Assembly (NCBI GenBank): GCA_017447445.1
Contig: JAFSNK010000035.1
Location: forward strand, 29,781-93,780
Length of the DNA stretch: 64,000 nt
Direction of reading: 5' to 3'
DNA from: Clostridia bacterium
GTDB taxonomy: Bacteria; Bacillota; Clostridia; Oscillospirales; CAG-382
The stretch's first letter is position 1. Each line of letters begins with the position of its first letter. Below the pieces are notes generated by a model. It was not told the origin of the DNA, ran no database searches, and saw only the letters and a program-made list of their open reading frames with translations. Of this stretch, positions 3,762 through 44,234 are shown piece after piece. A program made the position numbers and the translations under genes.

Positions 3762-3765
3762 GAAT

Positions 3766-4113: not shown

Positions 4114-4142
4114 AACGTACCGCTTCGCGCGGTACGTTTTTT
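4114..4142 (+). terminator. Rho-independent terminator after rnpB
   Basis: AACGTACCGC / GCGGTACGTT 10-bp stem, 5-nt loop, then TTTTTT. Confidence 0.8.
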
Positions 4143-9814: not shown

Positions 9815-9896
9815 ATGAATAACATCCTTCCGGTGCAGACCGGGTACCGCAAACGACATAAGCCCGTTCTGCTTTCCGATAAAATACACCATTTAC

Positions 9897-9965: not shown

Positions 9966-10007
9966 GAAAAAAAGCCGGAACGGCGCCGCCGCCGTTCCGG
10001 TTTTTTA
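9966..10007. terminator. Strong bidirectional rho-independent terminator ending the pilin/adhesin operon
   Basis: GCCGGAACGGCG / CGCCGTTCCGG stem flanked by an A-run (9967-9973) and a T-run (10001-10006). Confidence 0.8.
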
Positions 10008-10014: not shown

Positions 10015-10857
10015 TCAGTTCAGCGTTCCGGTCACGGTTATCTTTACCCTGCCGGGCGTACGCGGCGTTCCGGGTGTGAAGGAAGCCGCGGGTACCGTGA
10101 GCGCGTAAGCTCCGCCCGCCGGGAACGTGAGCACTCCCGCGACGTAGGTGTAGTTCTCCGGGGCGACCTCCGTGCCGTTCACCGCAACAGTTACGTTTGA
10201 AGGCGCGGGCGCGAAGGCGTCGGTGAGAACGACGTTTTCCGCCGCCATATTTCCGGTATTCGTGATATCGAAATCATAGGTCAGCAGACCGCCCGTAACG
10301 ACGGGGTTCGGAGACATGGTTTTTACTATCGCGAGCTGAGCGCTCTCCTCCGCCGTGACCGTGCTGGAGGCGGAGACGGTTTCGCCGGAATAAACGGCGG
10401 AGGCGGTGTTTGTTATCGTGCCGCCCTGCGCGGCGGGCGCTTCGCCGTTCACCACAGCGTTATAAACGATGAGCGCGTTTCCGCCAGCGGGGATCTGCGG
10501 AACGGTGAAGGTAACGCCGCCGTCGCCGACCGTCCCCGTGATCTCGCCCTGCGAAACGCCGTTGATATAAAGCAGCGCGCCGCCTGCGTAATCCAGCGGG
10601 ACCACCGTTCCCTCTTCGCCCTCGTAGGCGCCGAGATCGTCTGTGATCTCCAGCGAATCGATCCCGGTTTCGCAGGAGTTGGTAACGCCGATGATATAAG
10701 TGAGCGTATCGCCCGGCGTGTAAGTCCCGGCAAGCGAGGTCTTTTCTATCGCCACGGCGCCCTGCAGTACTGTCGTCGCAAGGTTGGAAACGGCGGTGGC
10801 CGTCTCCGTACCGTAGTTATAGCTGACGCTTGCGCGGTTCGTAATGATCGTTGCCAT
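10015..10857 (-). CDS. DUF11 (conserved repeat domain) protein with two repeats and no signal peptide
   Basis: Two DUF11-like cores: GDTLTYIIGVTNSCETGIDSLEITDDLG and GGLLTYDFDITNTGNMAAENVVLTDAFAP. The N-terminus MATIITNRASVSYNYG has no hydrophobic leader. Confidence 0.7.
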   Translation of the reverse strand: MATIITNRASVSYNYGTETATAVSNLATTVLQGAVAIEKTSLAGTYTPGDTLTYIIGVTNSCETGIDSLEITDDLGAYEGEEGTVVPLDYAGGALLYINGVSQGEITGTVGDGGVTFTVPQIPAGGNALIVYNAVVNGEAPAAQGGTITNTASAVYSGETVSASSTVTAEESAQLAIVKTMSPNPVVTGGLLTYDFDITNTGNMAAENVVLTDAFAPAPSNVTVAVNGTEVAPENYTYVAGVLTFPAGGAYALTVPAASFTPGTPRTPGRVKITVTGTLN

Positions 10858-10959
10858 CCTTGTTTGTTGACTCCTTTCGGCGGTAAAGCGTTGTGCTTTC
10901 CGCTGTTAGAAGTTTATGCAAAAGAACGGCGGCGGGACAATCGGTTCTTTATTCCGTTT

Positions 10960-13900
10960 TCAATCGTTCCTCGGGTCGCCCGGGATGCGCTTTGCGCGGA
11001 CGCCGCTTCCGTCGACGCTTACTTCGAACCAGGTCGCCGTATAGCCGGAGGGAGCGAGCGTTTCCTGCAGATAATACTTCCCGTACGGGAGCGTGCCGAT
11101 GTAGAACACGCCCGTATCGCCCGAAACGCAGCTTTCCGCCACGACCGACATATCGGCACGGAGCACGTTGAATTCGGCGCCCTTAAGCGATTCGTTGGCG
11201 ATATTGACCTTGCGGAATATCACCATGCGTTTCGCGGAAGAATCGTTTATTACGCCGCGTTTTGCGATATCCGGCGAGGTCGCCGCCATACCGCTTTCGC
11301 CATCCAGCAGGAACACCGCGGAATCGAGCGCGCCGCCGGAGGTCTGTGCGGAAACGTCCGCCAGAGTGAGCCCGTATTCGGCGAGGAACACGCTGTTTTC
11401 GAGGTAGGTCTTGCCCACTATAACAAGGTACCTTCGATTGCTGAGCGAGTATCCGTCCGGCGCCTCGGTCTCTCTCATAAAGTATATACCGGTGGGTATG
11501 TTCTCGAACAGGACGGCGCCTTCCGGCAGAGTGGCGCCGGAGGAGCTGCGCAGGGTTCCGTCGGAGGAAGCCGCGACAACGCTTCTGCCGCTTTGTCTGT
11601 AGGGATTCAGGCAGGTCTTGTCGACGAACAGCGTGAATTCCGCGCCTGCGAGCTTCGCGCCGAAGCCGTCGATCTTATCGAAGCCGACGTTGAAGCCGCC
11701 CGTCCAGTAGATATACGAAGCGTCGCTTCCCGTGCTGCCGGAGAGATAGCCGGAATCGCCGCAGAGAGTAAGATCGTCGGTCTGCGCGTTGCGGAACACC
11801 GTGTAGGATTCGGCGCCGAGCGTTATGCCGCCGTTGATCTTCGCAAACGGCTTCATCATAAGATAATGCTTTTCGCTTTCCGCCCATACCCAAATCGTGC
11901 CTTCGCCGCAGGTGAGGTCGCCCGTAATAAGTATTGAAGCGGGAGAATCGCCGGTCTCCTGCAGGAAGATATCCTGGTGCGCGTAGTTATACATCTTGCC
12001 GCCGTTCTTCTTAACGAAGCGGTCGGTGCGTTTGTTGATATTCGTATCGAGTATTCGCCCGTCCGCGCCGGTGCCTTTTCCGCCGAACGAAGGGTTGCCG
12101 GACATTTCGAGCACCGAGCCCGACGCGAGATAGATCCCCGCGCCGTCCTTATCGGACTCGTTGTTGGCGATCTTTCCGTCGTAAAGCGTGACTCTGCCGC
12201 CCGATGCGGTATAGATCGCGCCGCCCTTTTCGGAGGTCTTGGAGTTGACGAGCTCCGCGCCGCCGGAAACCGTGAGCTTGCCGCCGGAAGCGACGTATAC
12301 AAGTCCGCCGTCGGTATTCGCGGCGCGGTTTTCCTTTGCGCCCTGCAGAACTATATTGTTCAGTTTAAGCGTACCGCTCAGCGTGAACATCGAGCCGCCG
12401 TCGAACCAGCGCGTTATCTTTGCGGCGCCGCTGCCCTGATACGGGAACAGATCCGCGCCGAGAGAAGCTGTCGTGAGCGTGATACCCACGTTTCCGGTAG
12501 TCGCCTGCGGCAGACTTACGGCTTCGCCGAGCAAATACTCGCCGATAAGCATCTGTATCTGCGCGCCGTTCGCCGACACGCTGTGAGTGGTGGGATTAGT
12601 GCCCGCGGAGGTATAGAGCTTGCCGCGCAGCGCTTCGAAGGCGCCCTCGCTCCCGGTGAGATCGGTATAGACCGCCGGGACGTAATAATCCTTGCCGCCC
12701 GAGGTATATTTGCGATAGAGCAGACTTCCGTCGTTCTTCGTGATCTTGCAGACCGGAAGAATGTTTACTGCGGCGACCTCGGAAACGTACGGGTCGACGT
12801 CGGTCCTGCCGCTGTTTTCGCCTATCGTTCCGGAATACACGTTGGTAAGCGCGGCGTACTTCTTCTGCTGGTCCGCCGTGAGGTTTTCCATTACCTCGTA
12901 GGTAAGACCTTTTGATAGGTTTATACCCGTGATGCTTTCGCCGTTCTTCAAGGTGAACCGCGCAACGGTCTTGTCGATGCCGTTGCTTTCGAAGAACATT
13001 TCGCCGTAGTCGCCGGTGGAGCTGTCGATCTCGTACGCGGATTTCTGACCGGGCGAGGAGGCGTCGCCTGTGATAACGACCGTGAAGGAGAACACCTCGT
13101 TCGGGTCGGGAACGACGCTGCTTCCCGATTCGACAGTCTTGCTTACGGTAAGCGAGAAGATCTGTATCCAATAGATCGTATTGGGCGCGGGATTCTCTAT
13201 TATGCCGCCCTTAAGACCGTTTCTGTCGTTGACGAAGCAATAGAAGTTATTGACGTTGTCGCCGCTCGCAAAGCCGCCGAACGGTTTCTTTTCGACGCCG
13301 TGCTCGTCATATAGCAGAGCGCCGTCCGGAACGTAAACGCCGATGTAGGAGCCGGAGTAGATGCCGCCGTTTTCGGTTTTTATAACGGAGCTCGAATCGT
13401 AGTTCAGCTCGACATTGCAGATATTCCCGGCAGCCGTGCTTGCCGCGCACCTGTTGCCCGAAACGACGACGCGTTTTGAAAGCAGGAGCCCGGAGGTGCT
13501 GCTTCCGAACGCGATCCCGCCGCCGGCGTCGGTCGCGTCGTTATTCGTAACGCTGCCGCCGGACATATGCAGGGACTTGCTCTCGCGGATGAAGATGCCG
13601 CCGCCGCTTACGGCAGAGCACCTTGTAACGGAGCCGCCCTCCATATAGAAGTTGTTTCCGGCGTAGATGCCGCCGCCGTTGCCCGCCTGCGCGGTACATC
13701 TGGAAACCGTGCCCGCGGTGAACACGATGCTGTTGGGCTTGTTCTCGAGAAGGTATATACCGCCGCCGTTCATCCCCGCGACGCAGTTGTTTATAGTGCC
13801 GCCGGAGATCCTTAAAGTGCCTTTGTTCACGTAGACGCCGGCGCCGTTCGCGGTGGTCGTTGCGTTCTGCAGAAGCGCGTTCTGCCCGAGCGTAACGGTC

Positions 13901-16900
13901 TTGCCCTCCGCTTCGATGTTGACGATGCGGGTATATCCCTTCGGGGTCCCGACTGTGCCGTCTAATATGATATTCTCGACCTGGATATTGGTCCTGACGT
14001 CGAGCATACTGTGGTCGCCCACGCCGTTGCCCCTGGCAATAGTGGCGCGCGTCCACTTCCCGCTTTCCCTGCGCGGATCAGCCGGATCGGCGGTGGTAAG
14101 AGTGATGCTTTGCACCTTATCTGTATAGATCGCTTTGATGCTCTTTTCGGAAACGAAGTTTTCCACAAGCATCTTTACGCAGTAATGAGTACCCGTATAA
14201 AGTGTGCCGCCCGAAGTATAAAGCTGCAGGTCGGTTTTTCTCAACACGCCGAACGCGCTGATGTTATCCGGCGTTTCTGAACCGCTGTTGTCGAGTTTGT
14301 CGAAAATCGCTTCCTCGGTGTGCGCGGCGTTCATATAAAGCTTGACTTCGTTGCCCTGATCGTCCACGCCGGTGATCCTTGCGACGGGAGGCCCCGCCCA
14401 GATTATCTTCATGCCGTCCTCGTCGGTACGGTCGATAATGCCGTAAAGCGTGCTGTTGTCCGCACGGAAGACCGCGTCGTTATCCGAGAACCCGGAAGCG
14501 GGTTTGGAGACGTAGGAGGAGCCGAACTGCGTTCCGACCTTATCGGCGTTGACAACGAGGATACTGCCGTTCAGTGCGCACCAAACGTAAACGCTTTTTA
14601 CGTTGTTCTTAGCTCCGGAGTTGTCCCACCAGAGCCGCACGTTGGAGGAAGCGCCCGCGGCGGTGCTGTTATCGGTAACGGACGAGGAATCGGGCTCCGT
14701 CGCGCCCTTGGAGCCGACGAGGAGCTGCCGGTTGTTGATGAGATATACGCCCGCGGCGTTTTCCGCCGACGAAGAAGCAAGGCGGTTGTCGCGGATCATC
14801 GTGTCGTTCCAGATATGCAGATGCGCTTTTGTCGCGACGCCGCCGCCGAGATTGGACGCGGTATTTCCGGTTACGGTGCAGGCGTTGAGCTTAAGCTCGG
14901 TCGTGCCGTCGTAATTGTGATATATACCGCCGCCGCTGCCGGAGGATTCGTTGCCGCGGACTGCGGTGTTCTCCAGCGAAACGAGGCCGACGTTTGAATA
15001 GAGGCCGCCGCCCAAAGACGAGGATCCCGACGCGCGGCAGTTCTCCATCGTGGAGCTTTCTACTGTGAAGGTCGCTTCGGCTTTTGCGTCGCCGGTGAGT
15101 TCGCAGTTATGGCATATGCCGCCGCCGTTGCTTTGCGCGGTGCAGTTGGAGATCACCGTGCCGGAGGGGTTTTCGCCCTCCGAAACGCCGACGTAGAGCG
15201 TTTTTACGTTGGTGTAAATACCGCCGCCGCTGCCGCCGGAGGTGTTGCGGTTGAAGGTGCAGCTCTTGACGTTGAGCATCATGTTTGCGGGGACGGAATC
15301 CTTCCCGCTGCACCATACGCCGCCGCCGTTGCCCGCCGCGGTGTTTTCGGATATATTCGATCCGGTAAGCGCCGCGGTCCACGCGTTGGTGTAGATACCG
15401 CCGCCGGTCTGACCGGACGCGGTCACCTTGTTGCCTTTTATTTTGGCGTTTGTTACGGTCATCTGCGACCCGCTTATCGGGCGGTCGTGATAAATGCCGC
15501 CGCCGTTGTTCTTTGCGGTATTGTCGGATACCGACGAATGCTTAACTTTTTCCGCACCGCTTTCGTCGGTGTACGTATGATCGGAGATCTCGACAGTCTT
15601 CGCAAGCGTATATACGCCGCCGCCTGAACCGTTGTTGGCGGTATTGCCGTTTATCGAAGACCCGTTCACCGTAAGCGACATATTCTTGCGCACGTCGTCG
15701 GTGGATCCGTTGTAGAACACGCCGCCGCCGTTGCCGTTGTAGTTATAGCCGGAAACGTTGAACGATATCGACGAATCGATGATCTTAAGCGACGGTTTGG
15801 AGGTGTTCTTGACGTAGCAATACAAGCCGCCTCCGGCGCCTTTGCAGCTGTTGTTTTCGATGGTGGCGCCTGTGATCGTGACTTTTTGCATCATATTTGC
15901 GTAGACGCCGCCGCCGTTTACGCCGTTTGAATTGGAAGTGTTTCCGGTTATCACGGCGCCGGTTATGGTAAGCGAAGAATTGGAGTTGTCTTTTTCGCAG
16001 AACAAGCCGCCGCCTTCGTTTTTGGCATAGCAATTAGTGATCTCGGTCTGTCTGCCGATAATATTGTTCTCTGCATTGCGGATATATTTCCCGGCGGATA
16101 CGCTTGCCGGAGCTTCGCCGGCGCCGTAGGTGTAGTTGTCTATCACCATCGTCAGCGCTTTGCTGTAAACGCCGCCGCCCTGTTTGTTCGCGTTGCATCT
16201 GTTGAACGTGGTGCCGTATATTTCGCACATTTTGGCGTTGCCGTTCGACAGCGAGAACCCGCCGCCGTAAGCCGCGGAACTGTTGGAAAACGTGCAGTCC
16301 TTAACGGTCGTATAAACAGAGGTGCTTCGGAATCCTCCGCCGTAGCCGCCGTTCGAAGCCGTGCCGGTAAGCTGGCAGTCGTTGAAGGTGCAGCCGATAA
16401 CCGTTACCCAGCAATCGGCGCTGGAGGTGCCGCTGTTAAGCGCCCAGACGTTGAATCCGCCGCCGTTGCGCTTCTTTGCATAGCAATGCTCGAAAGTGGT
16501 GCCTTCGACAAGTATAGTCTTCGAGTCGAGCTCCAGACCGCCCGCCGCGTCGGCGTTGCAGTTCCTGAACACGCAGTTTTTGATATTGGTCCAGGAATTG
16601 TAGTTGCCGTCCACACGGTGGAACACCGCGCCCGCCTGGTCGACAGCCGTGCAGTTTTCGAAAACGCAGTTTTCAAGAGTCATCGTTTCGGCGTTGGTAA
16701 CGAGCGCGCCGCCGCCCAAACGGTTGGAGGTCTCCGTGGTAGTGGAAGTGCAGCCGGTGAAGTTGGAGTTTCTTACTTCAAGCACCGTGCCGGGAAGCGT
16801 CACTTTGTTGTTCTTGTCCTTAGCGGAGAACATTATAAGCAGCGCGCCGCCGTTGCTGGCGTAAACGTTTTTGAAATCGACGTTGTCGATATAAACGTTT

Positions 16901-19900
16901 GTGTATTTTGCCGCTATACCGCCGCCGTCGCTGCTTCCTTTAACGCTCTTGCCGTCGAATATAAGGTTTTTAACGGTGAGCGTTGTTACGACCGCGTTGC
17001 TGACCAGGGCGTTTTCGGCGTTGATCATGGAAAGACCGTTGTCGGAATCGCGGCTGATTATGGCGCGGTCGCCTTCGCCGGAGTATTTGTAGGTCACCCC
17101 GCTCTTTGCGGCGGTCGTTATTGTTATATTGTATCCTTGAGGTATCGACACCACGTCCCCTATCGGGAGCAGGTAGTCGGTAAGCATTTCTATGACGGCG
17201 GTTTTTTCGGCTGCAAGAGTGATATCCCCGTTCTTGATCGCGTCGATGGCGCTGCTGATCAAGCTGTAAGGATGCTCGACGCCGGACGCGTCGACTACCT
17301 TGCAAATGCGTTTGTCGTCGCCGAAGATTATTTTATACGTGCTGGAGGAATTCAGAGTCGTGCCGGAGATCTGCGCAAAGCCGCCGCCCGCGCCGAGCGC
17401 AGCCGCGCCTTCCGATTCGCCGGTCTTTCTTAAGCGTATGCTTTCGCCGTCGGCGCCGTTTACGAACGAGCCGTCGAGCGTATACGCCATATTCCTGCCG
17501 CCCGGTATGAGCAGGTTGACCGAATCGCCCTCCGCGAGCTTAAGATCATCCGCGGTGATCGGCAGGAGCGCGGAACGTATCGCGCCGTTCTTGGCGAACA
17601 CGGTACCGAATCCGGCGTTCACGGCGTTGTTAATAACGCTTAGACCGTTGACCTTGATATCGGAGATATCCAGCTCTTTATCGGTATTGTTCTCTATCGC
17701 TATGTAAGCCGGTTCGGAATAATAGATGATTATCTTTTTCCCGGCGAGCGGAGATCTCGTCCCGTCGCGTTTTTCAGTCATCCACGCGGAAACGTCGCTG
17801 TCCCACACAAGTTTGGTTATATAATCGCCGTACCCGGACGCGCCCTCGACGAAAGCGCAGCCGTAGACAGCGGAGCTTGTTAAATTCATACTGCCGCTGT
17901 ACTTGGTGTAAAGCTCGGAGGCGAGTTCGGAAACCGCGCCGTCGTTGAATTCGGGGAAATAATTCGTATTGGTGTATTTGCTCGTATACGAAGCGGACGG
18001 GGGCAGTTCGGCGAAAGACTCCTGATACCGCACCTCTACTTTTACGGAGTTGCCCCAGTATAGTTTCTTGGCATTGGTATCGCTTTGAACGTACAGCGAA
18101 GCGAATCTGTCGTTGACTATTTTGGATACGTTCGAATTATTCGTATAGATGGCGAAGCGCGCGCCCGGAACGCTGCGTTCGGAAACGATACCGTCGGGAA
18201 CGTAGATGCCGATCGAAGCGCTGCCGCTTAAGCTGTCGATATTTATAACCGCGTCGTCGTCCTGGTCGAGATAAACGTTGCAGGTAGAACCGCCGAGTTT
18301 GTTGTTCTTTACCTGAACGCCGCCGTCGAACATAAGACGCGCGTCTTTGCTTCCGACGCCGACCGCGCCGCCGGAGGTCGCGGTATTGTTTGTATAACTG
18401 CCGGAGCTTAACGTAGCCCTGCCGACGTTATTATATACAGCCGCGCCGTTTACGGCTTGGTTGCCGCTGGCGGTAACGGATGCGAGCGTAAGATTGCCGC
18501 TGTTGAGATATACCGCGCCGCCGAATCCGGAAAGAGCGCTGTTTTCGGTGAATGCAGTGGAGGATATGGAGATAACGCCTGCGCCCGCGTAGATCGCGCC
18601 GCCGCTGCCCGCCGAAGCCGAGTTGGAGAGCATGCTGCCGCCGGACACCGTTAAATTGCCGCTGCCCGCGTACACCGCGCCGCCGTTCTGCCCCGCGGTG
18701 TTGCCTTTGGAGCTTCCGCCCGCGGCGACGTTCGTGAACGTTACGGTGCCTTTATCCGCGTATACCGCGCCGCCGTCCGTTCCGGCGGTATTGTTTTCCA
18801 ATTTGGAGTTTGTAATATCGACCGAACCGGAGAGCGCGCACACGGCGCCGCCCTTGCCCGCGGAGGCGGTGTTGTTTATAAATTCGGAGCTGTCGTCCGC
18901 GGATACGGAGCCCGAACCGGCGTAGACGGCGCCGCCGTCGGCGCCCGCCGTGTTGGAGCCCATACTGCCGCCGGAGATATAGACGTTGCCGTTTGCGGCG
19001 TATACCGCGCCGCCTTTATCGGAAACGGATCTGTTGGAAGTAAACGACGCTTCGGTAACGTTTACGTCGCCGCTTCCGGCATAGATCGCGCCGCCCGCGC
19101 CGGACGTTGATTCGTTGTTCGCGGCGGAGCCGTTCGAGAAGTTGACCGCGCCAGTCCCGGCGTAGATCGCGGCGCCCGATCCGGCTTTGTTGGCGTTGAC
19201 GACGGAAGTGGTTCCCGAAACCGTCACGGTGGCGTTTTCGGCATATACGAAGCCGCCGTTGCCGGAAAGCGCCTTGTTGCCTTCGCCCGCGCCGCCTTCC
19301 ATATTTACCGAACCCGTGCCGATCCATATAGCGCCGCCGTCGCTCCCCGAAGCGGTGTTGCCGACTAATGAGGGGGACCCGGAGGTGCTTACGGCGCCCC
19401 TGTTGACGCAGATCGCGCCGCCTTTGTTCGCGCTGTTGGCGGATACCGACGCGGTGTCTTTTATTTCCGCCGTGCCGTTTTCCATATATATCGCGCCGCC
19501 ACTGCCGTTTGCCGCGGTGTTGCCGCGCATTTCCGAGAATTCGGAAAGCACGACGGAGCCCGCGGAAGCGCAGATCGCGCCGCCGTTGCCGGAAAGCGCG
19601 CTGTTGGCGGAAAAGCTGCCGTTGCCCTTTACGGTTATCCTGCCGTTGCCGCTGAAGTATATCGCGCCGCCGTTCGCGGCGGTGTTGTTCCTTATCGAGC
19701 CGGAATCCACCGTGACGTTGCCGGACGAAGCGGATATCGCGCCGCCGTTGCCGATATTAACCGCGTTGATGAGCGCGGCGCCTTCGGCGACCGTAAGGTT
19801 CCCGGTATTTTTGACAAGCGGGGCGGAAGCGCTTATTTCCGCACCGTCGATAACTACGCCGTCGATGATAAGCGTTCCTTTATTATCTATCATAGCCGCG

Positions 19901-22900
19901 CCGGAAAGCGAGGCGGTGCGCGTGATGTGCGCCGTGCCTCCCGTCCCGGTGAAGCCGTCGTCCGCGGTCTTTAGCTTGATAGCGGTGCCCTGCGGGATCT
20001 CCACCCTGTCCGCGTACGGCATAAGGTAATCCGTGAGCATTTCGATATCCGTCTGATCGGGAGCGAAGTATTCGTTCACGTAATCGACTGCGCTCTGCAT
20101 CGTGTAGAAGATGCGCTCGGTGCCGTTGTCGTTTACCTTGCACAGCCGTTTCGGGCTGTTTATAAGCTCCAGCTTCGTTTCCGCGTCGAGCGCAAGCGTT
20201 ACGCTCCTGTTGTCGAAAACAGTTAAATTGCTTGTCGTCGAGCCGACTATCCGGCCCGCCCTCACTGCGAGATCGTAGTTTTCGTTGCCGGATTCGGTAA
20301 CGGTGTAGGTCCCTCTTAAAAGACCTTTTATGCGTATATGCGCGCCGTCGCGCACGGTAATCTCGATCCTGCCGGGCGCGGAGCCGGACGCGGGCACGGC
20401 GTAAACGTAGGAATCGCCGGTGCCTTCCGCCGCGTAGGAGACGTGCTTAATACTGTCGGAAACCAGCGTGACCGTGAATTCGTTATCGGTGAACAGCCGG
20501 TTCGCGCCGCTTTGGGTGGTGTTGACGGTTTTGACTATCTGCAGGTCGTAGCCGCGTTCGGTATAGACCGCGTAAACGGTGGGAGAAACCGAAAGCAGCA
20601 GATCCTTCCAAACGGTCCCGTCGAAGCTGTACTGCAGTGTGGTGTTTGATACCCGGAACCGCAGTTCCAGCCCGTCCGCGACGTCGAGAAGCGAAAGATC
20701 GTCTATCCCTCCGGCGCCGACCGCGAGTTTGGTATAGGAAAGGTACCTTTCGAACACGCCCTCGTCGAGTATCGGGGGCATACGGAAGGCGTTGCCTTTC
20801 TGGCTTAAAGTCAAGCCGGAAAGCGGGATCTCGAAGCGTTCGTCCTGCTCCACCGTCTTGCCGTTCATGGATATCGGAGAATGGCTGTACGTCAGCGAGT
20901 CGCTTTCGCGGATGATGCCGTCCGTGCCGGGCAGACAGCCCTTGATATCGGTGAGCACGCCGCTTTCGTTTTCCAGAACGTAGCGTATCTTCGGCATTGT
21001 ATAATAGATGTAGTAGATCTGGTCGCTTCCGAGCTCGCCGAGCGTATCGCCGTTTTCGTCTTTAAGTACGAGCTCGTATATATTGCCGTTTGTCTGCTGA
21101 TATGAGACCGAAACGATGCCGAGCTCCCTTACCGATACGGCTGCGTTATCCGCCCCGTTGCCGTAGAGCGCGGCGCCGAAGGCATAGATCGAAGCGTCGC
21201 CGTTGAAAACTCCCGCGGCGGGAAGCTTTGCCGTGAGCACGGCGCTTTCGCCCAGCGCGAGCGAGAAGCGGTAGTCGGCGGGATCGGCGCTGCGTCTGCC
21301 GTCCCTGCGTACGACGCCGCCGGTGACTCCGTCGTCCTCAACGAGCGCGACGTGAACTTCGACTTCTGTCGCCTTGTGAGTGTTGGTGAAGGTGACGTTG
21401 CGCACGTCGCCGAGCGCGCTCGAGGTATATTCGAATTCATACGAAGCAACGCCGTCGGCTTCGGTGGTGAACGCGTCGTTCGCCGCCTGCACTATACGCG
21501 CGATCTGCGTGGATTCGACGGTAACTACTGTCAAAACGCGCACGTTGGCGGAAATATTATCCGCCGTCTCGGTCTCGGTCTTGCTGTAGAAGAGGATCGC
21601 CGAACGCGCTTCGCCGTTCTTAAGAGTATATTGCGTGTATTCCGGCATGGAGGGAACGAAAACGTCGTTTTCCGCCGTGTCGGTGGTTACGGTGGGTTCC
21701 CCGTCGTTCACCCATTCCCCGGCGATGAGCTTCTGATCGCGGACCGTAGTGGTGGTCGTGACGGTTTCTTTTACTGTGAGGTCGTAAGTGAACGGTGTGT
21801 TCATCACGGCGGAGGTGCCCACCGTGGATTCATAGAACATAACTACGCAGGGCAGTTTTTCGAAATAGATCACGTACAACTGCGGATCGTAGCCGCAGTC
21901 GATGGGGTCCGCGCCGCCGGAGGTCCTGAACCGGAAGCCGCGCCAGGTGTTCTCGACAGTAAGGTACGGGCGGTCGGAATCGGAATCCGAGGACGAGGTT
22001 ATAAGCACCATACCGGAAGCGTTAGTCGCCCCGGGGGCGCCTATGGCGAACGCGTAATAAGGAGTATCGGCGCTGCCGTACCACGCGAGCGGATCGGTGA
22101 TCCCCGCGGCGGCGTCATAGCCGCCTATTCGCCCGTTCGTGCTGTTCGGCGCGGACGCGGAGACGGCTGCGTCTTCCAGCGCGCCGGAGGGCAGCATTTT
22201 TTTGTATACGACGGAAAGCTCTTTCAGTTCGTAGAAAACAAAGTATATTTCGTAGGGTTCTTCTATCGCGGAGCGTCTGCCGTCGGCGTATTCGGCGTAC
22301 AGATGCTTTTCGGACTGATCGTAATACGCCGAAACGATCTTTTCGGATTCGGAGATAAGCTGAATATCCGTGCCCATCTTATGCGCGGCGGCAAAAGCGA
22401 ACGCGTAATCGGCGGGCGCGGGGATGTTTGTGAGATCGACCGGGTCGGCGGTGACAAGCAGCTTGTCCGCCGTCCAGCCGGACCTTTCGGAAAGCACGGC
22501 GGAAGAAGCGTCGATCGCGTGGACCGGGACCTCCACCGGGCCCGCCCAGCGGGCGTAAAGGTCGAGATCCGCCGTTACGGGGGAGGAAAAATCGTATGCC
22601 GGGCTGGTTTCGGTCTGTGCCGGGACCGGAGTTTCGGTCCAGAAATAGAACATCGTATCCGCAAGCGGAGAAACCGGTATCGCGGCGGGCTCCTCGACTG
22701 TGTTGCCGAAGTACACCTGAACGGAATATACGTCGTTTGCCGAGTCGTAGCCGCTTTCGGTCCAGGAGGCGCCGGGAACGCCGAGATGGAACCTCACCTC
22801 CGCCTTCCATACCGCGTAAAGCCGCAGCGGCTCTTTTCTGTCGACGCCGCAGTCGCCGCCGAGCTGATACAAAGTATCGCCGGGACGGTAGACGGGTTTT

Positions 22901-25797: not shown

Positions 25798-25860
25798 TTC
25801 CTCGCGTGAATACAGTTATGTTCGTTCTGCGGACGTTCGGTCCGCCGTGATCTTGAAAAA

Positions 25861-28038
25861 TTATCTGTTGATTATCCTTACTTCGGGTGCGGGCCAGTCG
25901 CCGTAATGCGAAGCGACGAAATCGCCGCTTTCAAGGTCCGCGCCGAGCTGCCCGACGGTGATAAGCGCGTATCCGCCGCGGTAATACTGCACCAGCGCGC
26001 CGTCGTAAGCGGAAGCGGGCATACGGACCGCGGTGAGGTAGGCGTTGAATCCCGCGCTGTCGGCGTCGAACGGAACGATATCCTTTGCGCTGCCGGACGG
26101 AGCCGCGGGCAGATAGGTCTTGCCGTCCGCGCCGGAATCACGCTCGTTCACGATCTGGTAATAGCGGCACTTGTCGCCGAAGACCGTGGTCTCGCCGGGG
26201 ACGGCGGCGAAAGCGCCTTCGGCTTCGCTGCCCTCGACTTTACCCGCGGCGTAGCAATTGTCGATGCTGCCGCCGCTTGTGACCGCGGCGATACCGCCCG
26301 CGTTTTTGCCTTTCGCGGAGCAGGTGGAATAGCTTTCGGAAAGCGTCATCCCGTAGGCGGCGCCGACAAGCCCGCCCGCGTTTGCGGCGGAAGTGACGTT
26401 GTATCCGTCGGCGCTGAACGCGCCGTTTACGGTGTGTCCGCCGGAGAAGCAGGCGATAACGCCGCCGTCTTTGACGTAGCCGATAAGCCCGCCCGCGTTG
26501 TCGCCCGTGGAGACGACTGTGAGCGCCGCCGCGCTTTTGGTGACCGTGCTGCGTTCGGCGCTGCCGATAAGGCCGCCCGCGCTGCCCGAAGCGGTGATAT
26601 TCGCCGCGGCAGAGCCGGTGCTGTTGTAAGCCACGACGTTAGTGACCGTCGCGCCGTCCGCGTCCCCTGCGAGAGCGCCGGCGTTGCTTCCGGAAATCGT
26701 GAAGTCGATAAGCTTAAGGTTCTTCACCGTGTCGCCGGTAAGCGAGCCGAACATACCCGAGGCGGCGCCGGGACGGTCCGCCGAGACCGCCGAGACCGCG
26801 TGACGCTGTCCGTCGTATTCAAGCACGTAATCGGTGTTCACCGGGTAGTATTTTTTATCGGTAAGCGGACCGGAACGGTCGTAAACGCTTCTGTCCTCCC
26901 AGCCGGACCAGGAAATATCGGTGGTCTGGAGCGCCTTCACGCTGCCGTCGGACCGGTTGTGTTTAAGCTCCGTATTCGAAACGTTGAGTTCGGAAACGGT
27001 CCTGTCGAGATTTTCCAGATGGCGGATATTCGAAATATGCGCGGAAGCTTTGTCCGAATCGTTATAGGCGAACAGACTGTTCGTCGTCTGCTTCGTGCTG
27101 TACGCGACGTTCGTGAGCTCGCTGTTGTTGTAAGAGACCGCCTGAACGGTTATATCCTCGCCGGGGATGAACCCGTTCGGACCGAGCAGCTCCGAAAAGT
27201 GCTTTCCGCTTTGGGTGATATCGTCGAGCGTGAGGGTGAAAACGTAATTGTCGTCGGAATTCCTGTAAACGTCGGAATTCGAATAGAATTCGGTCGCGGA
27301 GCTGCTTGAAAGCGGGATCTCGCGCCGGCTTTTGCTTGTGACTCCGGTAATTATAAGCTTTATGCGCGCCTTGTCGTTCGCGGAGTTGGTGTCCGTAACC
27401 GTAACGATCAACTTGTCCGCGTTGCTCACGGAGATAAGGGGCGTTTTAAGCTCCGCGCCGCGGGTAAGCCCGGAAGCGTCCGCGCCGCCGTAGTAGCCGA
27501 TAACAGATTTATCGCCCGTATACGTCTTTAACTCGTCCTTGTCGGCGCGTTTTTCCATAAAGGAAGCGTAATCGTCGGCATAAATATGATCGTACCTGCC
27601 GTTTTCCTGCCAGTAGAAGACGTCCAGCACGGTGCCGGAATCCTTGTGATAGCGGATGATATAACATCCGCCGCCGCGCACCGTTTCGTCCACCGCGGCG
27701 AACGGCAGCATAAGGTTGAGCACCGAGTTTTCGTCGTCGACGTCGGAATGCGAGCCGTCTTTAATGAAATAGTATATCCCGGTAAGGTCGCCGTGTTCGT
27801 CCTTTTCCGGCGTGCCGAAATCGCCGCGTCCGAGATACCCCTGGCTTTCCGCCATCGAAAGATGGTTCTGCGCCGCGATGAAAATCTCTTTCGCGCAGCC
27901 GTCGTATTCCAATTTTGTCATGGAACGGAGATAGGCGAATATCGCAACGAAGATAAGCGCGGCAAGCACCGCGATTATCGCCACGACCATAAGCGCCTCC
28001 GCCATGGTAAAGCCGTTTTTGCGTTTGTTGTTATGCAT
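25861..28038 (-). CDS. Large modular (minor) pilin: prepilin-type N-terminus fused to a ~700-aa module with GLUG-motif repeats
   Basis: Class III signal MHNNKRKNG|FTMAEALMVVAIIAVLAALIF. The C-terminal half carries repeated NAGGLIG / SAGGLIG / NAGGLVG / NAGGIAA motifs (about 26250-26720). An alternative TTG start lies at 28056. Confidence 0.8.
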   Translation of the reverse strand: MHNNKRKNGFTMAEALMVVAIIAVLAALIFVAIFAYLRSMTKLEYDGCAKEIFIAAQNHLSMAESQGYLGRGDFGTPEKDEHGDLTGIYYFIKDGSHSDVDDENSVLNLMLPFAAVDETVRGGGCYIIRYHKDSGTVLDVFYWQENGRYDHIYADDYASFMEKRADKDELKTYTGDKSVIGYYGGADASGLTRGAELKTPLISVSNADKLIVTVTDTNSANDKARIKLIITGVTSKSRREIPLSSSSATEFYSNSDVYRNSDDNYVFTLTLDDITQSGKHFSELLGPNGFIPGEDITVQAVSYNNSELTNVAYSTKQTTNSLFAYNDSDKASAHISNIRHLENLDRTVSELNVSNTELKHNRSDGSVKALQTTDISWSGWEDRSVYDRSGPLTDKKYYPVNTDYVLEYDGQRHAVSAVSADRPGAASGMFGSLTGDTVKNLKLIDFTISGSNAGALAGDADGATVTNVVAYNSTGSAAANITASGSAGGLIGSAERSTVTKSAAALTVVSTGDNAGGLIGYVKDGGVIACFSGGHTVNGAFSADGYNVTSAANAGGLVGAAYGMTLSESYSTCSAKGKNAGGIAAVTSGGSIDNCYAAGKVEGSEAEGAFAAVPGETTVFGDKCRYYQIVNERDSGADGKTYLPAAPSGSAKDIVPFDADSAGFNAYLTAVRMPASAYDGALVQYYRGGYALITVGQLGADLESGDFVASHYGDWPAPEVRIINR

Positions 28039-28052
28039 ATCGTCCCACCGTG

Positions 28053-28574
28053 TCAACGTTTAATATCGGTAAGTATTTTTATCTCGAACGCCGCCGCGCC
28101 GATCATCGTTTCGTCGCCCTTTTTTACCGCGAGGTCAGTAAACTTTATTACGCCGCCGGAATATTCGCAGGAGGCGAACGAGGTGCGCAGGTTGTTGTTC
28201 GCCGCCTCGCGCGTGACGAGCAGGCGGTCGTATTCGGGCGAATCGGTGATATCCGCGTATTCGCGCAGACAGATGCCGCCGTCGCCGAGATATATCACGC
28301 TTTTGCTCCCCGCGGAGCTTACGTAGGTGATCGTCCCGCCCTCGGCTTTTATCTCCGCGGCGGTGCAAAGCTCGTCGCGCAGACGTGTCATCGTGGTGGA
28401 AAGCAGCACCTGCGCGTTCGCGGAGGTAACTATTTCGTCGTACGCGTTCACCGCGACGGGTACGCCCGCCGCGACTATCGCCACGACCATAAGCAGGATG
28501 ACTATGGCGATGAGCGTTTCGGCAAGCGTGACGCCCGATTTATTCTTTATTTTCCGCCGGATCCGTTTTGCCAT
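28053..28574 (-). CDS. Minor pilin / pseudopilin (prepilin-type N-terminal cleavage/methylation domain)
   Basis: MAKRIRRKIKNKSG|VTLAETLIAIVILLMVVAIV: basic leader, Gly-1, Glu+5, hydrophobic helix. Confidence 0.75.
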   Translation of the reverse strand: MAKRIRRKIKNKSGVTLAETLIAIVILLMVVAIVAAGVPVAVNAYDEIVTSANAQVLLSTTMTRLRDELCTAAEIKAEGGTITYVSSAGSKSVIYLGDGGICLREYADITDSPEYDRLLVTREAANNNLRTSFASCEYSGGVIKFTDLAVKKGDETMIGAAAFEIKILTDIKR

Positions 28575-28924
28575 TATTCCGCCACCTTGTATGATCTTAC
28601 CGACCCGTTCGAGCCGTTTTCGTAGTATTGCACGGTTATTTCGGTCCCGTCGCCATTGGTAAGCCGTATGGCGGCGTTCCCTTCGCCGATTATGGTGACC
28701 GTTCCGGAACCCGAAGCGGCGCTTTGCTCCACAACGGCGTTTTCGCCCTCCGCGTATGCCGCCATACCGTCCCTGCTTTTGCGGACGAGCGAGGCGGAGG
28801 AATTGATCATCGCGGCGAGCGTGACTATCCCAAGTGAAGATACGAGCAGCGCGACGAGCACTTCGGCAATGGTTTCGCCGCGGCGGTCCTTGATGCGCGC
28901 AAGCGCTTTTTTAATTGCTTTCAT
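28574..28924 (-). CDS. Minor pilin / pseudopilin (prepilin-type N-terminus)
   Basis: MKAIKKALARIKDRRG|ETIAEVLVALLVSSLGIV. 1-nt overlap with the next gene and 14-nt overlap with the previous one. Confidence 0.7.
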   Translation of the reverse strand: MKAIKKALARIKDRRGETIAEVLVALLVSSLGIVTLAAMINSSASLVRKSRDGMAAYAEGENAVVEQSAASGSGTVTIIGEGNAAIRLTNGDGTEITVQYYENGSNGSVRSYKVAE

Positions 28925-29744
28925 CCGGCTCGCGCACCTCCTTTACGATACTGCCTACCGACCATTTTATAACCGACGTTTTCGTGTATACCGTCGTCTT
29001 CCTGCGCGTCTCTTTATATCCGCCCTCCGTCTCCGCGGTAAAGGCGTTTTCGGTGACGCCGCTGTTATCCGAAACGTTTATCGACGGCGTGAGCGTGAGT
29101 ATAAGCGCAAAGCTGTCCTTTGCGGAGCCGTCGCTCACACGGAATACCAGCGTGCCGTCGCTTTCGCTGTGCCATTCCACCGAAGCGTTAAGCTCCGTAT
29201 CGGCGTGGGAAACGGTGAACCCCTTTCCGGCGCCGCTTTCCGAGACGGAAAACGTGTATCCCATCGCGGCGGCGGTATCCGGCGCCTCGTTCCCGAACAT
29301 CAGCCGCACCGCGCGCTCCGTGAGAAAGCTGAATCCGCTGTGCTCGTAGTCGCCGTTGAAAAGGTTCGGCTCCGTATCGGTGGGATCGACGGCGGCGGTG
29401 TATGTTTCGGTAACGGAGTTAACGGGAGCCCCCTGCGAGACCTGCTCTTCGCCGTTGGAATCGATTATTACGGTATAATCGGTCTCGGTGACGTTTTGGG
29501 TGGTCTTGGTGCGGACTATCTTTACCTCCCTGCCGCAAAGCTTTTCGGCAAGCAGCTCCGCCGCGGAAGCGACCTTGTAATATCTTTTGTCCATCTCCGC
29601 AAGTTTGCTCGCCTTTCCGGCGGAAGCCGTGGCGGAGGCGAGCACCACCGCGCCGACCACCGCGCAAACGAGGAACAGCAGCAGCGCGACGATAAGCGAA
29701 GCGCCTTTATTCGATTTTAATTTTGCCGCGGTCTTTTTACGCAT
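28911..29744 (-). CDS. Pilin-like protein lacking Glu5 (PilX/GspK/ComGG-like position in the operon)
   Basis: MRKKTAAKLKSNKG|ASLIVALLLFLVCAVVGAVV: basic leader, Gly, hydrophobic helix, no Glu at +5. First gene after the promoter at 29825-29853. Confidence 0.6.
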   Translation of the reverse strand: MRKKTAAKLKSNKGASLIVALLLFLVCAVVGAVVLASATASAGKASKLAEMDKRYYKVASAAELLAEKLCGREVKIVRTKTTQNVTETDYTVIIDSNGEEQVSQGAPVNSVTETYTAAVDPTDTEPNLFNGDYEHSGFSFLTERAVRLMFGNEAPDTAAAMGYTFSVSESGAGKGFTVSHADTELNASVEWHSESDGTLVFRVSDGSAKDSFALILTLTPSINVSDNSGVTENAFTAETEGGYKETRRKTTVYTKTSVIKWSVGSIVKEVREPDESN

Positions 29745-29824
29745 ACAGATACCTCACAGAGCCGGAACGGTATATTTATTATAATTATATATATAAATAA
29801 TTTATAAATAATTTCGTAAATTGA

Positions 29825-29853
29825 AGTATAACACAAATAAAAGCAAATGTCAA
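29825..29853 (-). promoter_or_regulatory. sigma-A promoter of the minor-pilin/giant-adhesin operon (TTGACA-17-TATACT)
   Basis: The minus strand reads TTGACAtttgcttttatttgtgtTATACT. It is followed by a ~70-nt very AT-rich leader and a GAGGT RBS. Confidence 0.6.
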
Positions 29854-29888
29854 TACTTTCTATACATTATGTCAACGATTTTCAGCGC

Positions 29889-29929
29889 AAAACAAAAAGG
29901 CGGCGTCCGCGTTGCCGCGCGGCGCCGCC
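29889..29929 (-). terminator. Rho-independent terminator after the Wzy_C-family gene
   Basis: 13-bp GC-rich stem (GGCGGCGTCCGCG / CGCG(C)GGCGCCGCC) followed on the minus strand by TTTTTGTT. Confidence 0.75.
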
Positions 29930-29959
29930 GAAGCGGTTATATTATTTGAAAACGCACGG

Positions 29960-31321
29960 TCATTCGCCCTTTTCCGCGCGCTGATACCCCATTCCGAGGA
30001 AGATGAACAGCAACGGTGCGGTGCCGAACAAAGTCAGCCCGAAAAACGCCGAAACAAGATACCCGAACGCTCCGGTCAAACAGACCAAAGACACCGGATC
30101 TAGTTTATGCCTGCGCTTTAATGCGCGTAAATATACTGTCAGACATCCGGCAAAATACGCAAGTCCCGCCGGAATCCCATAGAACAGCGCATATTGCAAA
30201 TACTCGTTATGCACTCTGTAATTACCCGCGAATTCTTTAAGATCATTAACGTCTATACCCTCAAATCCTATACCGAAAAGAGGATGAGAAATGATCATTT
30301 TACCTGCCGTCGTCCACAATTGCCAACGACCGGACCCGGCGCTTTTGGCGCCTTCGGCGTTTTCGGCGATTTTTATGATATCATTACCCAATTGAACGAT
30401 GTTATTTTCAAAATGTCCTTGTATATGTCCCGGCAAATACAAACTGACAGCAAAAATCAAGAACACGACCGCCACTTGCCAGTTGAGCTTATGCTCGATT
30501 ATTGCATGCGCTATCAGCAAAAACACAATTGCGACAAAGCAAGCGACCCAAGCGCCCATTGTATTATTGAACGCCAATGCGACCGAATTCGCGCATACGG
30601 AAAACGCGGATAACAGCTTCCAACCGATACGCGTTTCAGCCACAAACCCCGCCGCCGATAATGAAACGGAAACGGCAAGATAATAGCCGTAATAATTCGT
30701 ATTACTGAAAATCGCGGAAAACTGTTGTTTCCAAGATATTATTTGCGAAGTTAATTGAGTTTTCCAAAGCACAAACGCAACGATGACCAAAAACAAACTC
30801 GTAAATTCAAAAACGCGGACGATCCACCATTTGACAGTTGCGTTTTTTATAATAACGGCGGACGGAAAAAGCAGACAGAAATACCCCAACTGCATAAATA
30901 TCGTTTCGTGTCTGAAACCCGCGCCGGACAGTACCCAGCCGTTCCACCCGTTGACTGAAGTTGCAGCGATCATCCAAATGCTCAAAAACAAAAAGCAGAC
31001 GAACGCTGGATTTGTTTTAAGTGTTGTTTTGATATGTTTGCATTTTGAATTCCCTTTAATACAGTACAGCAGCATTGAAACAACGCCTAAAACCGCGGCG
31101 ATAGGCCAGACAATATGTTCAATGGCAAACGGATACCCATAAACCAAAAAATCCGCGTTTTTAAGAATCATGCAAAAAGCGCCGATAAAAAAGGGCGTAA
31201 CAATAAACAGGCCTGCGCAAATTGCAGAAAGGTACTCGGGTACTTTTTCCGGTAGCGCTTCTGCGAACTTGTGACAATAGCCGCATATATCTGTATTCAA
31301 CCCTATTCTTTGCTTTTGCAT
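29960..31321 (-). CDS. O-antigen ligase (Wzy_C) family polytopic membrane protein; candidate pilin O-oligosaccharyltransferase (TfpO/PilO/PglL-like)
   Basis: About 10-12 hydrophobic segments and the family-typical RVHNEYLQYALFYGIPAGLAYF motif near the C-terminus. Start set at the ATG at 31321 (AAGGAG 6 nt upstream); the ORF extends to 31360 through a hairpin. Confidence 0.7.
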   Translation of the reverse strand: MQKQRIGLNTDICGYCHKFAEALPEKVPEYLSAICAGLFIVTPFFIGAFCMILKNADFLVYGYPFAIEHIVWPIAAVLGVVSMLLYCIKGNSKCKHIKTTLKTNPAFVCFLFLSIWMIAATSVNGWNGWVLSGAGFRHETIFMQLGYFCLLFPSAVIIKNATVKWWIVRVFEFTSLFLVIVAFVLWKTQLTSQIISWKQQFSAIFSNTNYYGYYLAVSVSLSAAGFVAETRIGWKLLSAFSVCANSVALAFNNTMGAWVACFVAIVFLLIAHAIIEHKLNWQVAVVFLIFAVSLYLPGHIQGHFENNIVQLGNDIIKIAENAEGAKSAGSGRWQLWTTAGKMIISHPLFGIGFEGIDVNDLKEFAGNYRVHNEYLQYALFYGIPAGLAYFAGCLTVYLRALKRRHKLDPVSLVCLTGAFGYLVSAFFGLTLFGTAPLLFIFLGMGYQRAEKGE

Positions 31322-31346
31322 TGCGTACTCCTTTTTCGACAGAAGA

Positions 31347-31383
31347 GAATTGACCCCCATCTATGATAGACGGAGGTCAATTC
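31347..31383 (-). other. 12-bp stem-loop between the pilin gene and the Wzy_C gene (possible attenuator or mRNA 3' stabiliser)
   Basis: Minus-strand RNA: GAAUUGACCUCC-13 nt-GGGGGUCAAUUC (one G-U pair), followed by ucuucug rather than a clean U-run. Confidence 0.45.
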
Positions 31384-31433
31384 TTAATGCCACTCCGACA
31401 TTATACCGTCGAAGTATTATTAATCAGCTTAAA

Positions 31434-31835
31434 TTAGTTGCCCGATGCGCCCATGAAGTTAATGAAGTGATCGGAACCCTTGGTAGCGTCAATGGTAACG
31501 GAACCGGTTTCAGAAACGTGTACGTAAACAGCGCCGGTCAACGTAACACCGCCGAGCTGGAAGTTGCCGATTTTGGTGGTGCTATCGATCTTCTCGAAAG
31601 TGCCGGACTGCTTAAGGTTAACGGGGCCTACGGTAACAGCGATGCCGTCCTGAGTAAGGGATTCGGCAGCGCCCATAGCATAAGCGGCACGAAGGTTAGC
31701 AGCATCAGCAGATTCACGGGATTTCTCGAGCTGGCTGGAGAATATCGGAATAGCGATAGCTACGAGAACGGCGATGATCGCAACGACGATCAGCAGTTCG
31801 GCAAGGGTAAAGCCCTTCTTGTTGGTTTTCTTCAT
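31434..31835 (-). CDS. Type IV pilin / pseudopilin (candidate major subunit)
   Basis: MKKTNKKG|FTLAELLIVVAIIAVLVAIAIPIF is a textbook class III signal with Phe+1 and Glu+5. 133 aa with its own consensus promoter. Confidence 0.85.
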   Translation of the reverse strand: MKKTNKKGFTLAELLIVVAIIAVLVAIAIPIFSSQLEKSRESADAANLRAAYAMGAAESLTQDGIAVTVGPVNLKQSGTFEKIDSTTKIGNFQLGGVTLTGAVYVHVSETGSVTIDATKGSDHFINFMGASGN

Positions 31836-31925
31836 TGTGAGTACTCTTTGAAAAAATATATTTTTTTATGAAGACTGGTTCATAAACCCGGTTCGTTGAC
31901 ATAATCATCGATTCGGGCTTTTTGT

Positions 31926-31954
31926 ATAATACCACAACGCAAAGCGAATGTCAA
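31926..31954 (-). promoter_or_regulatory. sigma-A promoter of the pilin gene (TTGACA-17-TATTAT, TGn-extended)
   Basis: The minus strand reads TTGACAttcgctttgcgttgtggTATTAT, with an A/T-rich tract (aaattgcaaatttttc) directly upstream. Confidence 0.6.
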
Positions 31955-44233: not shown

Positions 44234-44234
44234 A

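Follow-up and report, generated by a model that had tools for sequence, protein, structure and literature searches.

A stretch of 64,000 nucleotides (nt) from a Clostridia bacterium (CAG-382, Oscillospirales; assembly GCA_017447445.1, contig JAFSNK010000035.1, positions 29,781–93,780), hereafter the window, carries on its minus strand four consecutive minor-pilin genes, here called p1 to p4, followed by a gene for a Sec-secreted protein of 4,945 amino acids (aa), here called the giant. Judged from sequence, this locus probably encodes a module that forms the tip of a Gram-positive type IVa pilus (T4aP) together with its adhesin, the giant being physically carried by the pilus. Because the pairing of p1–p4 with a giant recurs across hundreds of Gram-positive species of the rumen and gut, type IV pili (T4P) probably carry the giant adhesin in these organisms.

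All gene coordinates given in an earlier, sequence-only reading of this DNA hold on the minus strand, as judged from the map of open reading frames (ORFs) and their translations. The translations also bear out its claim of four consecutive genes with class III prepilin signals, which read NKG/ASLIVALL in p1 (28911–29744; 277 aa), RG/ETIAEVLV in p2 (28574–28924; 116 aa), SG/VTLAETLI in p3 (28053–28574; 173 aa) and NG/FTMAE in p4 (25861–28038; 725 aa), the slash standing at the processing site. Each protein has a single N-terminal hydrophobic segment, and the N_methyl domain was matched in p2 (weakly, together with the PilV model TIGR02523, both at the N-terminus only), p3 (E = 7e-5) and p4. By their signal sequences, p1–p4 are thus substrates of a prepilin peptidase. 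The lack of Glu5 that had been noticed in p1 (G/ASLIV) is a family trait: in an alignment of 30 sequences, the residues G-A-S are invariant and position +5 is F, M, V or L, never Glu. The same alignment revealed a conserved C-terminal strand of p1's own (TT.T.T...W.L..I). On this sequence evidence, p1 is a Glu5-less capping pilin of the K type (GspK/PilK/PilX/ComGG). It has no match in Pfam, NCBIfam or the PDB, where a profile search gave nothing past the pilin N-terminal helix, and by these searches it is an unannotated protein family. The small minor pilin p2 has the size of GspI/PilV, and its position between p1 and p3 is conserved in related loci. Searching the PDB with a p3 profile yielded pilin matches restricted to the N-terminal helix. 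Since the profile searches ended at this helix, the assignment of p1–p3 as GspK-, GspI- and GspJ-like is based on size, gene order and Glu5 alone.

The fourth pilin combines an N_methyl and a GLUG domain, an architecture (IPR012902-IPR011493) already present in a survey of modular pilins (Raynaud et al., 2021; PMC8179133). An AlphaFold2 (AF2) model (pLDDT 90.2, pTM 0.84) shows, in this order, a pilin module, a β-sandwich, a GLUG β-helix and a small C-terminal subdomain. Because a pilin module and a GLUG module appear both in the domain matches and in the model, p4 qualifies as a modular pilin as that survey uses the term. The p4 family has more than 1,000 full-length homologues. The protein of the window ends in HYGDWPAPE, and the motif HYGDWP.PE is invariant in the family. 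In some species, the C-terminal module (aa ~265–725) is tandemly duplicated, which explains other genes for long p4 variants. The best Foldseek match of p4 is the β-helix region of the pneumococcal IgA1 protease (6xja/6xjb, E = 1e-5), and a profile match to 3n6z was also found. The matched region is the N-terminal GLUG β-helix of the M26 peptidase of Streptococcus pneumoniae; unlike that enzyme, p4 has a prepilin signal and no zincin domain. An HExxH motif is present neither in p4 nor in the giant, and a role for p4 as an M26 peptidase was rejected for lack of this motif.

The giant (10960–25797, minus strand) has a signal-peptide-like N-terminus and no prepilin motif. Its ORF lies 63 nt past p4, as the sequence-only reading had it, but translation probably starts at the second ATG, at 25788, because of the position of the ribosome-binding site (RBS) and because independent gene calls also give 4,942 aa. 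The N-terminal signal is the only hydrophobic segment of the protein, in agreement with the earlier assignment of an ordinary Sec-type signal instead of a pilin leader, and the C-terminus reads ...RIPGDPRND. Pfam scans of the whole protein and of ten 495-aa segments (E ≤ 0.5), together with a hydrophobicity analysis, revealed no C-terminal LPXTG-like motif or transmembrane tail and no SLH, LysM or CWB match; the earlier statement that such anchors are missing therefore stands, and no cryptic wall anchor emerged. The Pfam scans also gave no β-propeller of the PF05567/IPR008707 type. From the N- to the C-terminus, the signal peptide is followed by an N-terminal domain (ND; aa 40–198), Flg_new domains (Listeria-Bacteroides repeats, aa ~230–850), a DUF7601 domain (aa ~1750–1860), a parallel β-helix region of Chlam_PMP repeats (aa ~2000–2500; 18298–19800; PF02415, E = 2.2e-16; 15 GGA[ILV] motifs) with weaker PMP repeats at aa ~3400–3530, a second DUF7601 domain (aa 4215–4331) and two C-terminal SpaA (prealbumin/CnaB-like) domains (aa ~4750–4931; 11005–11550; PF17802, E = 8e-26). 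By this domain make-up, the giant is a fibrillar adhesin, of which about a quarter is β-helix. Its earlier description as a β-helix protein is thus apt for the PMP repeats but not for the remainder, which consists of ND, Flg_new, DUF7601 and SpaA domains. The giant of this same organism is called at 4,942, 4,357 or 4,263 aa in different metagenomes (loci L080–L084), reflecting either length polymorphism or assembly collapse in the repeats.

The ND (25204–25680) has no Pfam match and was defined by an iterative search with a hidden Markov model (HMM) built here. Its AF2 model (pLDDT 89.8) is a β-sandwich with a helical insert, for which no PDB fold match better than E = 0.02 was obtained; a sequence profile search of the PDB was also empty. 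In 22 related loci, covering both gene arrangements described below, one to four tandem copies are found near the N-termini of the giants. When 1.84 billion cluster representatives were searched exhaustively with phmmer, 983 matched at E ≤ 1e-3 and 441 at E ≤ 1e-10; the ~980 matches stand for protein clusters at 50% identity. Among the best 150 matches, the median length is 2,124 aa, 79 proteins have at least 2,000 aa, the longest has 7,751 aa, and 116 start with a signal-peptide-like sequence. Word-indexed searches returned only four short matches for the ND profile and proteins of up to ~1,100 aa for the first 700 aa of the giant, the index seemingly being devoid of giants. The ND is a newly defined, unannotated β-sandwich unit and the hallmark of the pilus-linked giants.

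To find relatives of p4, a single genome of each GTDB species was scanned with a degenerate pattern. Matches were obtained in 208 genomes, and 79 p4 loci with 10-kb flanks were analyzed. The hosts are almost all represented by metagenome-assembled genomes from rumen or gut and belong to the Oscillospiraceae, Lachnospiraceae, Erysipelotrichaceae, Mogibacterium and Coriobacteriia; one carrier, Oribacterium sp. NK2B42 (L077; NZ_KE384191.1, 22032–44434), has been cultured. Both p1 and p3 were detected in 73 of the 79 loci, and the order p1-p2-p3-p4 is kept in all of those. A giant homologue adjoins the pilin block on the same strand in ~57 of the 69 assessable loci, located directly upstream of p1 (37 loci), downstream of p4 or fused with it (~19 loci) or at a short distance (one locus); for three loci, the position was settled by inspecting ORF maps.

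The association also extends to the pilus machinery, T4P genes being found within 10 kb in 25 of the 79 loci. One example (L038) has the order giant-p1-p2-p3-p4-PilB-PilT-PilC-x-PilD-PilM-N-O, followed by a major-pilin match near the end of the locus, the machinery being confirmed by Pfam matches for T2SSE (2e-129), T2SSF (9e-53), A24 (4e-30) and PilM (2e-21). In the reverse direction, six giants were taken at even steps down the list of ND matches, and their contigs were looked up. All six lie beside T4P genes, and five directly abut a block of the size of p1–p4; the sixth (P0127) is encoded just downstream of PilB-T-C-D-M-N-O. One of the six (P0133) is part of a single-strand cluster encoding PilB-T-C-D-M-O, the giant, p1–p4, an LRV protein, the major pilin and YfhO. 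The co-occurrence of the four-pilin block with giants, which the sequence-only reading had proposed as a check, is thus very strong both forward (~57 of 69) and in reverse (six of six). Synteny shows that block and giants are co-inherited across Bacillota and Coriobacteriia, often within full T4aP operons that include PilT.

Such an association could also arise if the giant were a free-standing adhesin, held non-covalently in the wall, that merely shares an adhesion island and its regulation, for example by cyclic di-GMP (c-di-GMP), with the pilin genes and makes no contact with the pilus. In favor of this reading, clustering is frequent among adhesin genes, the module has GGDEF genes beside it in several loci, a giant is missing next to the block in ~12 loci, and the DUF11 and Wzy_C genes of the window (see below) indicate that surface genes specific to a lineage accumulate here. 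We nevertheless consider mere neighborhood unlikely: the same-strand adjacency is kept across two phyla in spite of two alternative gene orders, and the reverse sampling was positive in every case. Moreover, repeated independent fusions, involving p4 specifically, are hard to explain without a physical link.

These fusions occur in at least four lineages. In each, a full-length p4 that retains its prepilin signal runs in frame into an ND directly after it, without an intervening signal peptide, and then into the rest of a collinear giant. They were found in Solobacterium (L012/P0137), Oscillospiraceae (L030; complete, 2,901 aa) and Coriobacteriaceae (L059; more than 4,122 aa), and as a protein of 7,092 aa encoded between p3 and PilD in a T4P operon (P0272). 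The fusion junctions differ between the lineages. At the level of sequence, such Rosetta-stone fusions are evidence that p4, by its C-terminus, and the giant, by its N-terminus, are physically linked, and because they join those ends, docking via p4 and the N-terminus of the giant is favored.

The fused proteins also bear on the question whether the pilus serves to export the giant and not to display it. A pilus or short pseudopilus could act as a piston or conduit that carries the Sec-exported giant through the thick peptidoglycan, in the manner of a type II secretion system or of T4bP (type IVb pili) with CofJ/TcpF, after which the protein would either be set free or stay in the wall in some other way. 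The giant indeed lacks a recognizable anchor, and the tight synteny with minor pilins fits such a role equally well. Furthermore, according to a recent preprint (bioRxiv 10.64898/2026.09.18.752573), minor pilins of T4bP recruit cargo by the N-terminus of the cargo. However, a fused giant cannot be released cargo, because it belongs to a pilin whose N-terminal helix anchors it in the membrane. In addition, the PilT and the T4a-type major pilin of the relatives are typical of retractile pili and not of secretion pseudopili. Pilus-dependent export is therefore improbable as the function of this module.

In Pseudomonas, the fimU-pilV-pilW-pilX-pilY1 genes encode four minor pilins that prime the pilus and display the Sec-exported PilY1 at its tip. 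The sequence-only reading took this system as its model. The analogy holds for the layout but not for the adhesin, which has neither the PilY1 propeller nor a conserved plug at its C-terminus; the fusions instead suggest docking between p4 and the N-terminal end of the giant. Docking in the manner of PilY1 would have the extreme C-terminus of the giant add a β-strand to p1, as PilC/PilY1 does with PilK, a mechanism established for diderm T4aP (PMC13533445). In the commoner gene arrangement (37 loci), p1 lies right next to the 3' end of the gene for the giant, reminiscent of the adjacent pilX and pilY1 genes. However, when the C-terminal 70 residues of 40 giants were compared, the last SpaA domain was found to be conserved, whereas the tails beyond it vary in length and sequence. 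PilY1-type docking is less likely because these tails are not conserved and p1 has its own conserved C-terminal strand, which is the in-cis situation of GspK and ComGG. The absence of a PF05567/IPR008707 domain and the fact that, in the fusions, a pilin is joined to the N-terminal and not to the C-terminal end of the giant are further arguments against it. A C-terminal plug was rejected as the main docking route for want of a conserved tail in the 40 giants, and we regard this mode of attachment as very unlikely.

Most likely, the giant is displayed by docking onto p4, as follows. The pilins p1, p2 and p3 would form a GspK/I/J-like initiation complex at the tip of the pilus, and p4 would be incorporated just beneath it. 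The Sec-exported giant would then dock non-covalently onto p4, with contact between the ND region at the N-terminus of the giant and the C-terminal module of the pilin. Assembled from the separately transcribed major pilin, the pilus would present the ~5,000-residue fibrillar adhesin far from the cell, and retraction would pull the cell towards the ligand of the adhesin, e.g., plant fiber, other microbes or mucosa. Whether this extends to a widespread and previously unrecognized class of Gram-positive T4aP is, on gene order and domain content, an evenly balanced matter; in such a class, a Sec-secreted adhesin of 2,000–7,700 residues would dock via ND onto a GLUG pilin, without PilC/PilY1, and occasional fusion would generate "mega-pilins" of up to 7,092 residues.

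Several observations weigh against display at the pilus tip. In ~12 of the assessable loci, the pilin block has no adjacent giant, and it is therefore not strictly dependent on one. Sequence comparison did not place p2 and p3 in the GspI and GspJ folds. The ND occurs in one to seven tandem copies, a number as compatible with a stalk or binding repeat as with a docking domain. If sortase-anchored adhesins are taken as a guide, the C-terminal SpaA stalk domains would suggest that the C-terminus of the giant is cell-proximal. Finally, neither the 64-kb window (Pfam, ~40 ORFs) nor the 10 kb beyond its start contains PilB, PilT, PilC, PilD or PilM/N/O. The earlier statement that the window has no pil machinery gene is hereby borne out, and a functional pilus in this organism is an assumption, since the machinery was not found in these regions. 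In relatives, PilB, PilT, PilC, PilD and PilM-O are encoded adjacent to the same pilin block; in this genome, they would have to be encoded elsewhere.

Two features of the related loci deserve mention beside the display module. A conserved protein of ~240–270 aa without a Pfam match ("x239"; 16461–17180 in L038, the x in the gene order given above) has homologues in ~19 loci, and in many related T4P clusters its gene separates PilC (or p4) from PilD; it is not encoded in the window. In a locus from the Lachnospiraceae (L005, 4236–17551), two successive pilin blocks, p1-p2-p3-p4 and then p3-p4, are followed by a 1,628-aa ND protein whose C-terminal end is an LPHTG sorting signal; sortase-pilus-like genes come next. 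The locus may represent a hybrid of pilus-borne and wall-anchored display.

The gene order on the minus strand of the window is major pilin, Wzy_C gene, p1, p2, p3, p4, giant and DUF11 ORF. The genes named in the sequence-only reading are all present, but the Wzy_C gene between the major pilin and p1 had been overlooked. Within the pilin block, p1 and p2 overlap by 14 nt and p2 and p3 by 1 nt, and p3 and p4 are separated by 14 nt. The 63-nt gap between p4 and the giant contains a short hairpin without a U-run, and the gap between the giant and the DUF11 ORF measures 102 nt. A sigma-70-like promoter precedes p1 (29825–29853; TTGACA-17-TATACT, 11 of 12 positions, with TG), and an intrinsic terminator with an 11-bp stem of which nine pairs are GC, followed by CTTTTTTT, closes the transcription unit (9975–10000). 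The set is thus bounded by one promoter and one strong terminator, as had been proposed. Between these two sites, the minus strand has only weak hairpins of 5–6 bp and nothing terminator-like, which agrees with the earlier observation that no hairpin plus U-run intervenes. A second sigma-70-like promoter (31926–31954; TTGACA-17-TATTAT, 11 of 12 positions, extended TG) lies 5' of the major pilin gene. An Rfam search upstream of the major pilin and of p1 revealed no c-di-GMP or other riboswitch.

The major type IVa pilin (31434–31835, minus strand; 133 aa) has the class III signal KKG/FTLAELLIVVAII and matches N_methyl (PF07963, E = 1.3e-8) and NCBIfam pilin models. Homologues that are 70–80% identical over the N-terminal half are encoded inside the T4P clusters of three related loci (L012, L063 and L069). 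Among metagenome populations of the same organism, two alleles of the start region of this gene (31835–31860) are found. One of them, present in the window and in L080, combines the weak RBS AAAGAG with an ATG start codon; the other, present in L081 (a contig of 375 kb) and L082, has a good RBS, AGGAG, but ATA in place of the start codon. Over the remaining ~580 aligned bases there is no difference, and the alleles may represent an expression polymorphism.

Directly downstream of the major pilin gene, a polytopic membrane protein of the Wzy_C/O-antigen-ligase type is encoded (29960–31360, minus strand; PF04932, E = 1.6e-16). The segment with these two genes is low in GC (0.449). The Wzy_C protein is a candidate enzyme for the O-glycosylation of pilin, of the type of TfpO/PilO and PglL, oligosaccharyltransferases with a Wzy_C domain that glycosylate pilin and are encoded beside its gene. 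The one in the window is not conserved in relatives. In Butyrivibrio-type loci, the pilin gene is preceded by a gene for an LRV/HEAT-repeat protein, and YfhO takes the place of Wzy_C after it (14297–17158 in L018, 14540–17227 in L049 and 25273–27130 in L087). The presence of differing glycosyltransferase-like membrane proteins after the pilin gene suggests, at the sequence level, that pilins of Gram-positive T4P are glycosylated.

At the other end of the transcription unit, a two-domain DUF11 ORF of 280 aa (10015–10857, minus strand; PF01345, E = 2.8e-10; TIGR01451) follows the giant, as the sequence-only reading had stated. DUF11 is now named CLIPPER in Pfam and is an isopeptide-type stalk domain (PMC12617251). 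The ORF has no signal peptide, lies in the frame of the giant behind two stop codons and is unchanged in other populations of the same organism. It is probably co-transcribed and may be either a detached former C-terminus of the giant or a leaderless partner; read-through joining it to the giant is unlikely, as two stops intervene. Since tblastn gave no counterpart of Wzy_C or DUF11 in the 79 related loci, both were rejected as conserved components of the system; by this comparison, the Wzy_C gene is a lineage-specific accessory, and the DUF11 ORF is not a conserved part either.

GGDEF (diguanylate cyclase) genes directly flank the pilin/giant module in ~8 of ~86 loci (the window, L024, L033, L036, L050, L060, L064 and L090), whereas chance adjacency would, by a rough estimate, account for ~1 locus. 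The one in the window (7667–9892, minus strand) encodes two SBP_bac_3 domains besides GGDEF. These neighbors hint at control of the module by c-di-GMP. A sortase gene (46711–47433, plus strand) lies 15 kb from the pilus module on the strand opposite to the giant, to which it is not linked, and the ORFs beside it (43340–44242 and 47424–48320) have no Pfam match. Rfam matches in the window are RNase P RNA class A (3767–4115, plus strand; 261 bits) and a ribosomal L10 leader (62360–62506, plus strand), both of them ordinary RNAs with housekeeping functions. A listed Mur-ligase ORF (2296–4083) shares its 5' part with the RNase P gene, and its true start is further downstream (448 aa in gene calls).

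If the giants are indeed carried by pili, this would explain how giant adhesins without an anchor stay on Gram-positive cells, and the module would be a probable major attachment device of fiber-associated rumen bacteria. Retractile pili of rumen and gut anaerobes would then wield the largest pilus-borne adhesins known and offer a natural test of the size of the cargo that a T4P tip can carry and retract. The system would constitute a type of tip-displayed T4P adhesin with two unannotated families, p1 and ND, defined along the way. With p4 in at least 208 species-level genomes and ND in ~980 clusters, its carriers are mostly ruminant and gut anaerobes, and the cultured Oribacterium sp. NK2B42 makes it testable.

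The suggestion in the sequence-only reading that no Gram-positive example had been described agrees with papers stating that T4aP of monoderms lack PilC/PilY1 and use modular pilins instead (bioRxiv 10.64898/2026.09.18.752573; PMC8179133). A full-text search of the literature likewise revealed no description of a giant non-pilin partner of a Gram-positive T4P. In diderms, PilC/PilY1 is held by the PilHIJK complex (PMC13533445; bioRxiv 10.64898/2026.09.18.752573). The present system resembles PilC/PilY1 with PilH-I-J-K (FimU-PilV-W-X) in several respects: four minor pilins, including one without Glu5, are encoded together with a large Sec-exported non-pilin adhesin, which would be expected on the tip priming complex and has variable, modular N-terminal regions. 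In contrast to PilC/PilY1, the giant has no β-propeller or conserved plug, is four to seven times larger and belongs to a monoderm host. Furthermore, PilC/PilY1 uses the K-type pilin and the C-terminus of the adhesin, whereas the fusions described here implicate p4 and the N-terminus of the giant.

With respect to its building blocks, i.e., SpaA/CnaB-like, DUF7601, Listeria-Bacteroides and Chlam_PMP domains, the giant resembles sortase-anchored adhesins and the Pmp-type adhesins of Chlamydia and Bacteroidota. Unlike these, it has no LPXTG motif, autotransporter barrel, SLH, LysM or choline-binding anchor, and it is tied to pilus genes. A mode of attachment like the one proposed here is found in T4bP, where cargo docks by its N-terminus onto a minor pilin (as cited in bioRxiv 10.64898/2026.09.18.752573). 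In CofB-CofJ of enterotoxigenic Escherichia coli and TcpB-TcpF of Vibrio cholerae, a Sec-exported non-pilin is recruited in this way to the C-terminal domains of a large modular minor pilin at the tip. However, these pairs concern small, soluble colonization factors that are released and a homotrimeric minor pilin in diderms, whereas here an adhesin of several thousand residues is encoded with a T4aP-type cluster that includes PilT.

Modular pilins functionalize the tips of monoderm T4P (PMC8179133). In Streptococcus sanguinis, they consist, like p4, of a pilin module and a grafted module, i.e., a vWA domain in PilB and a lectin in PilC (PMC8179133), whereas the usual state here is a modular pilin plus a separate Sec-secreted giant. 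The largest modular pilin in the survey has 860 aa (PMC8179133), as compared with 2,901–7,092 aa for the p4-giant fusions, which are extreme modular pilins, almost ten times larger than the catalogued ones. The present locus and its relatives suggest a third solution to the display of adhesins at pilus tips, in which a modular minor pilin is coupled to a separate giant adhesin at the genetic level and, in some lineages, also by a covalent link.

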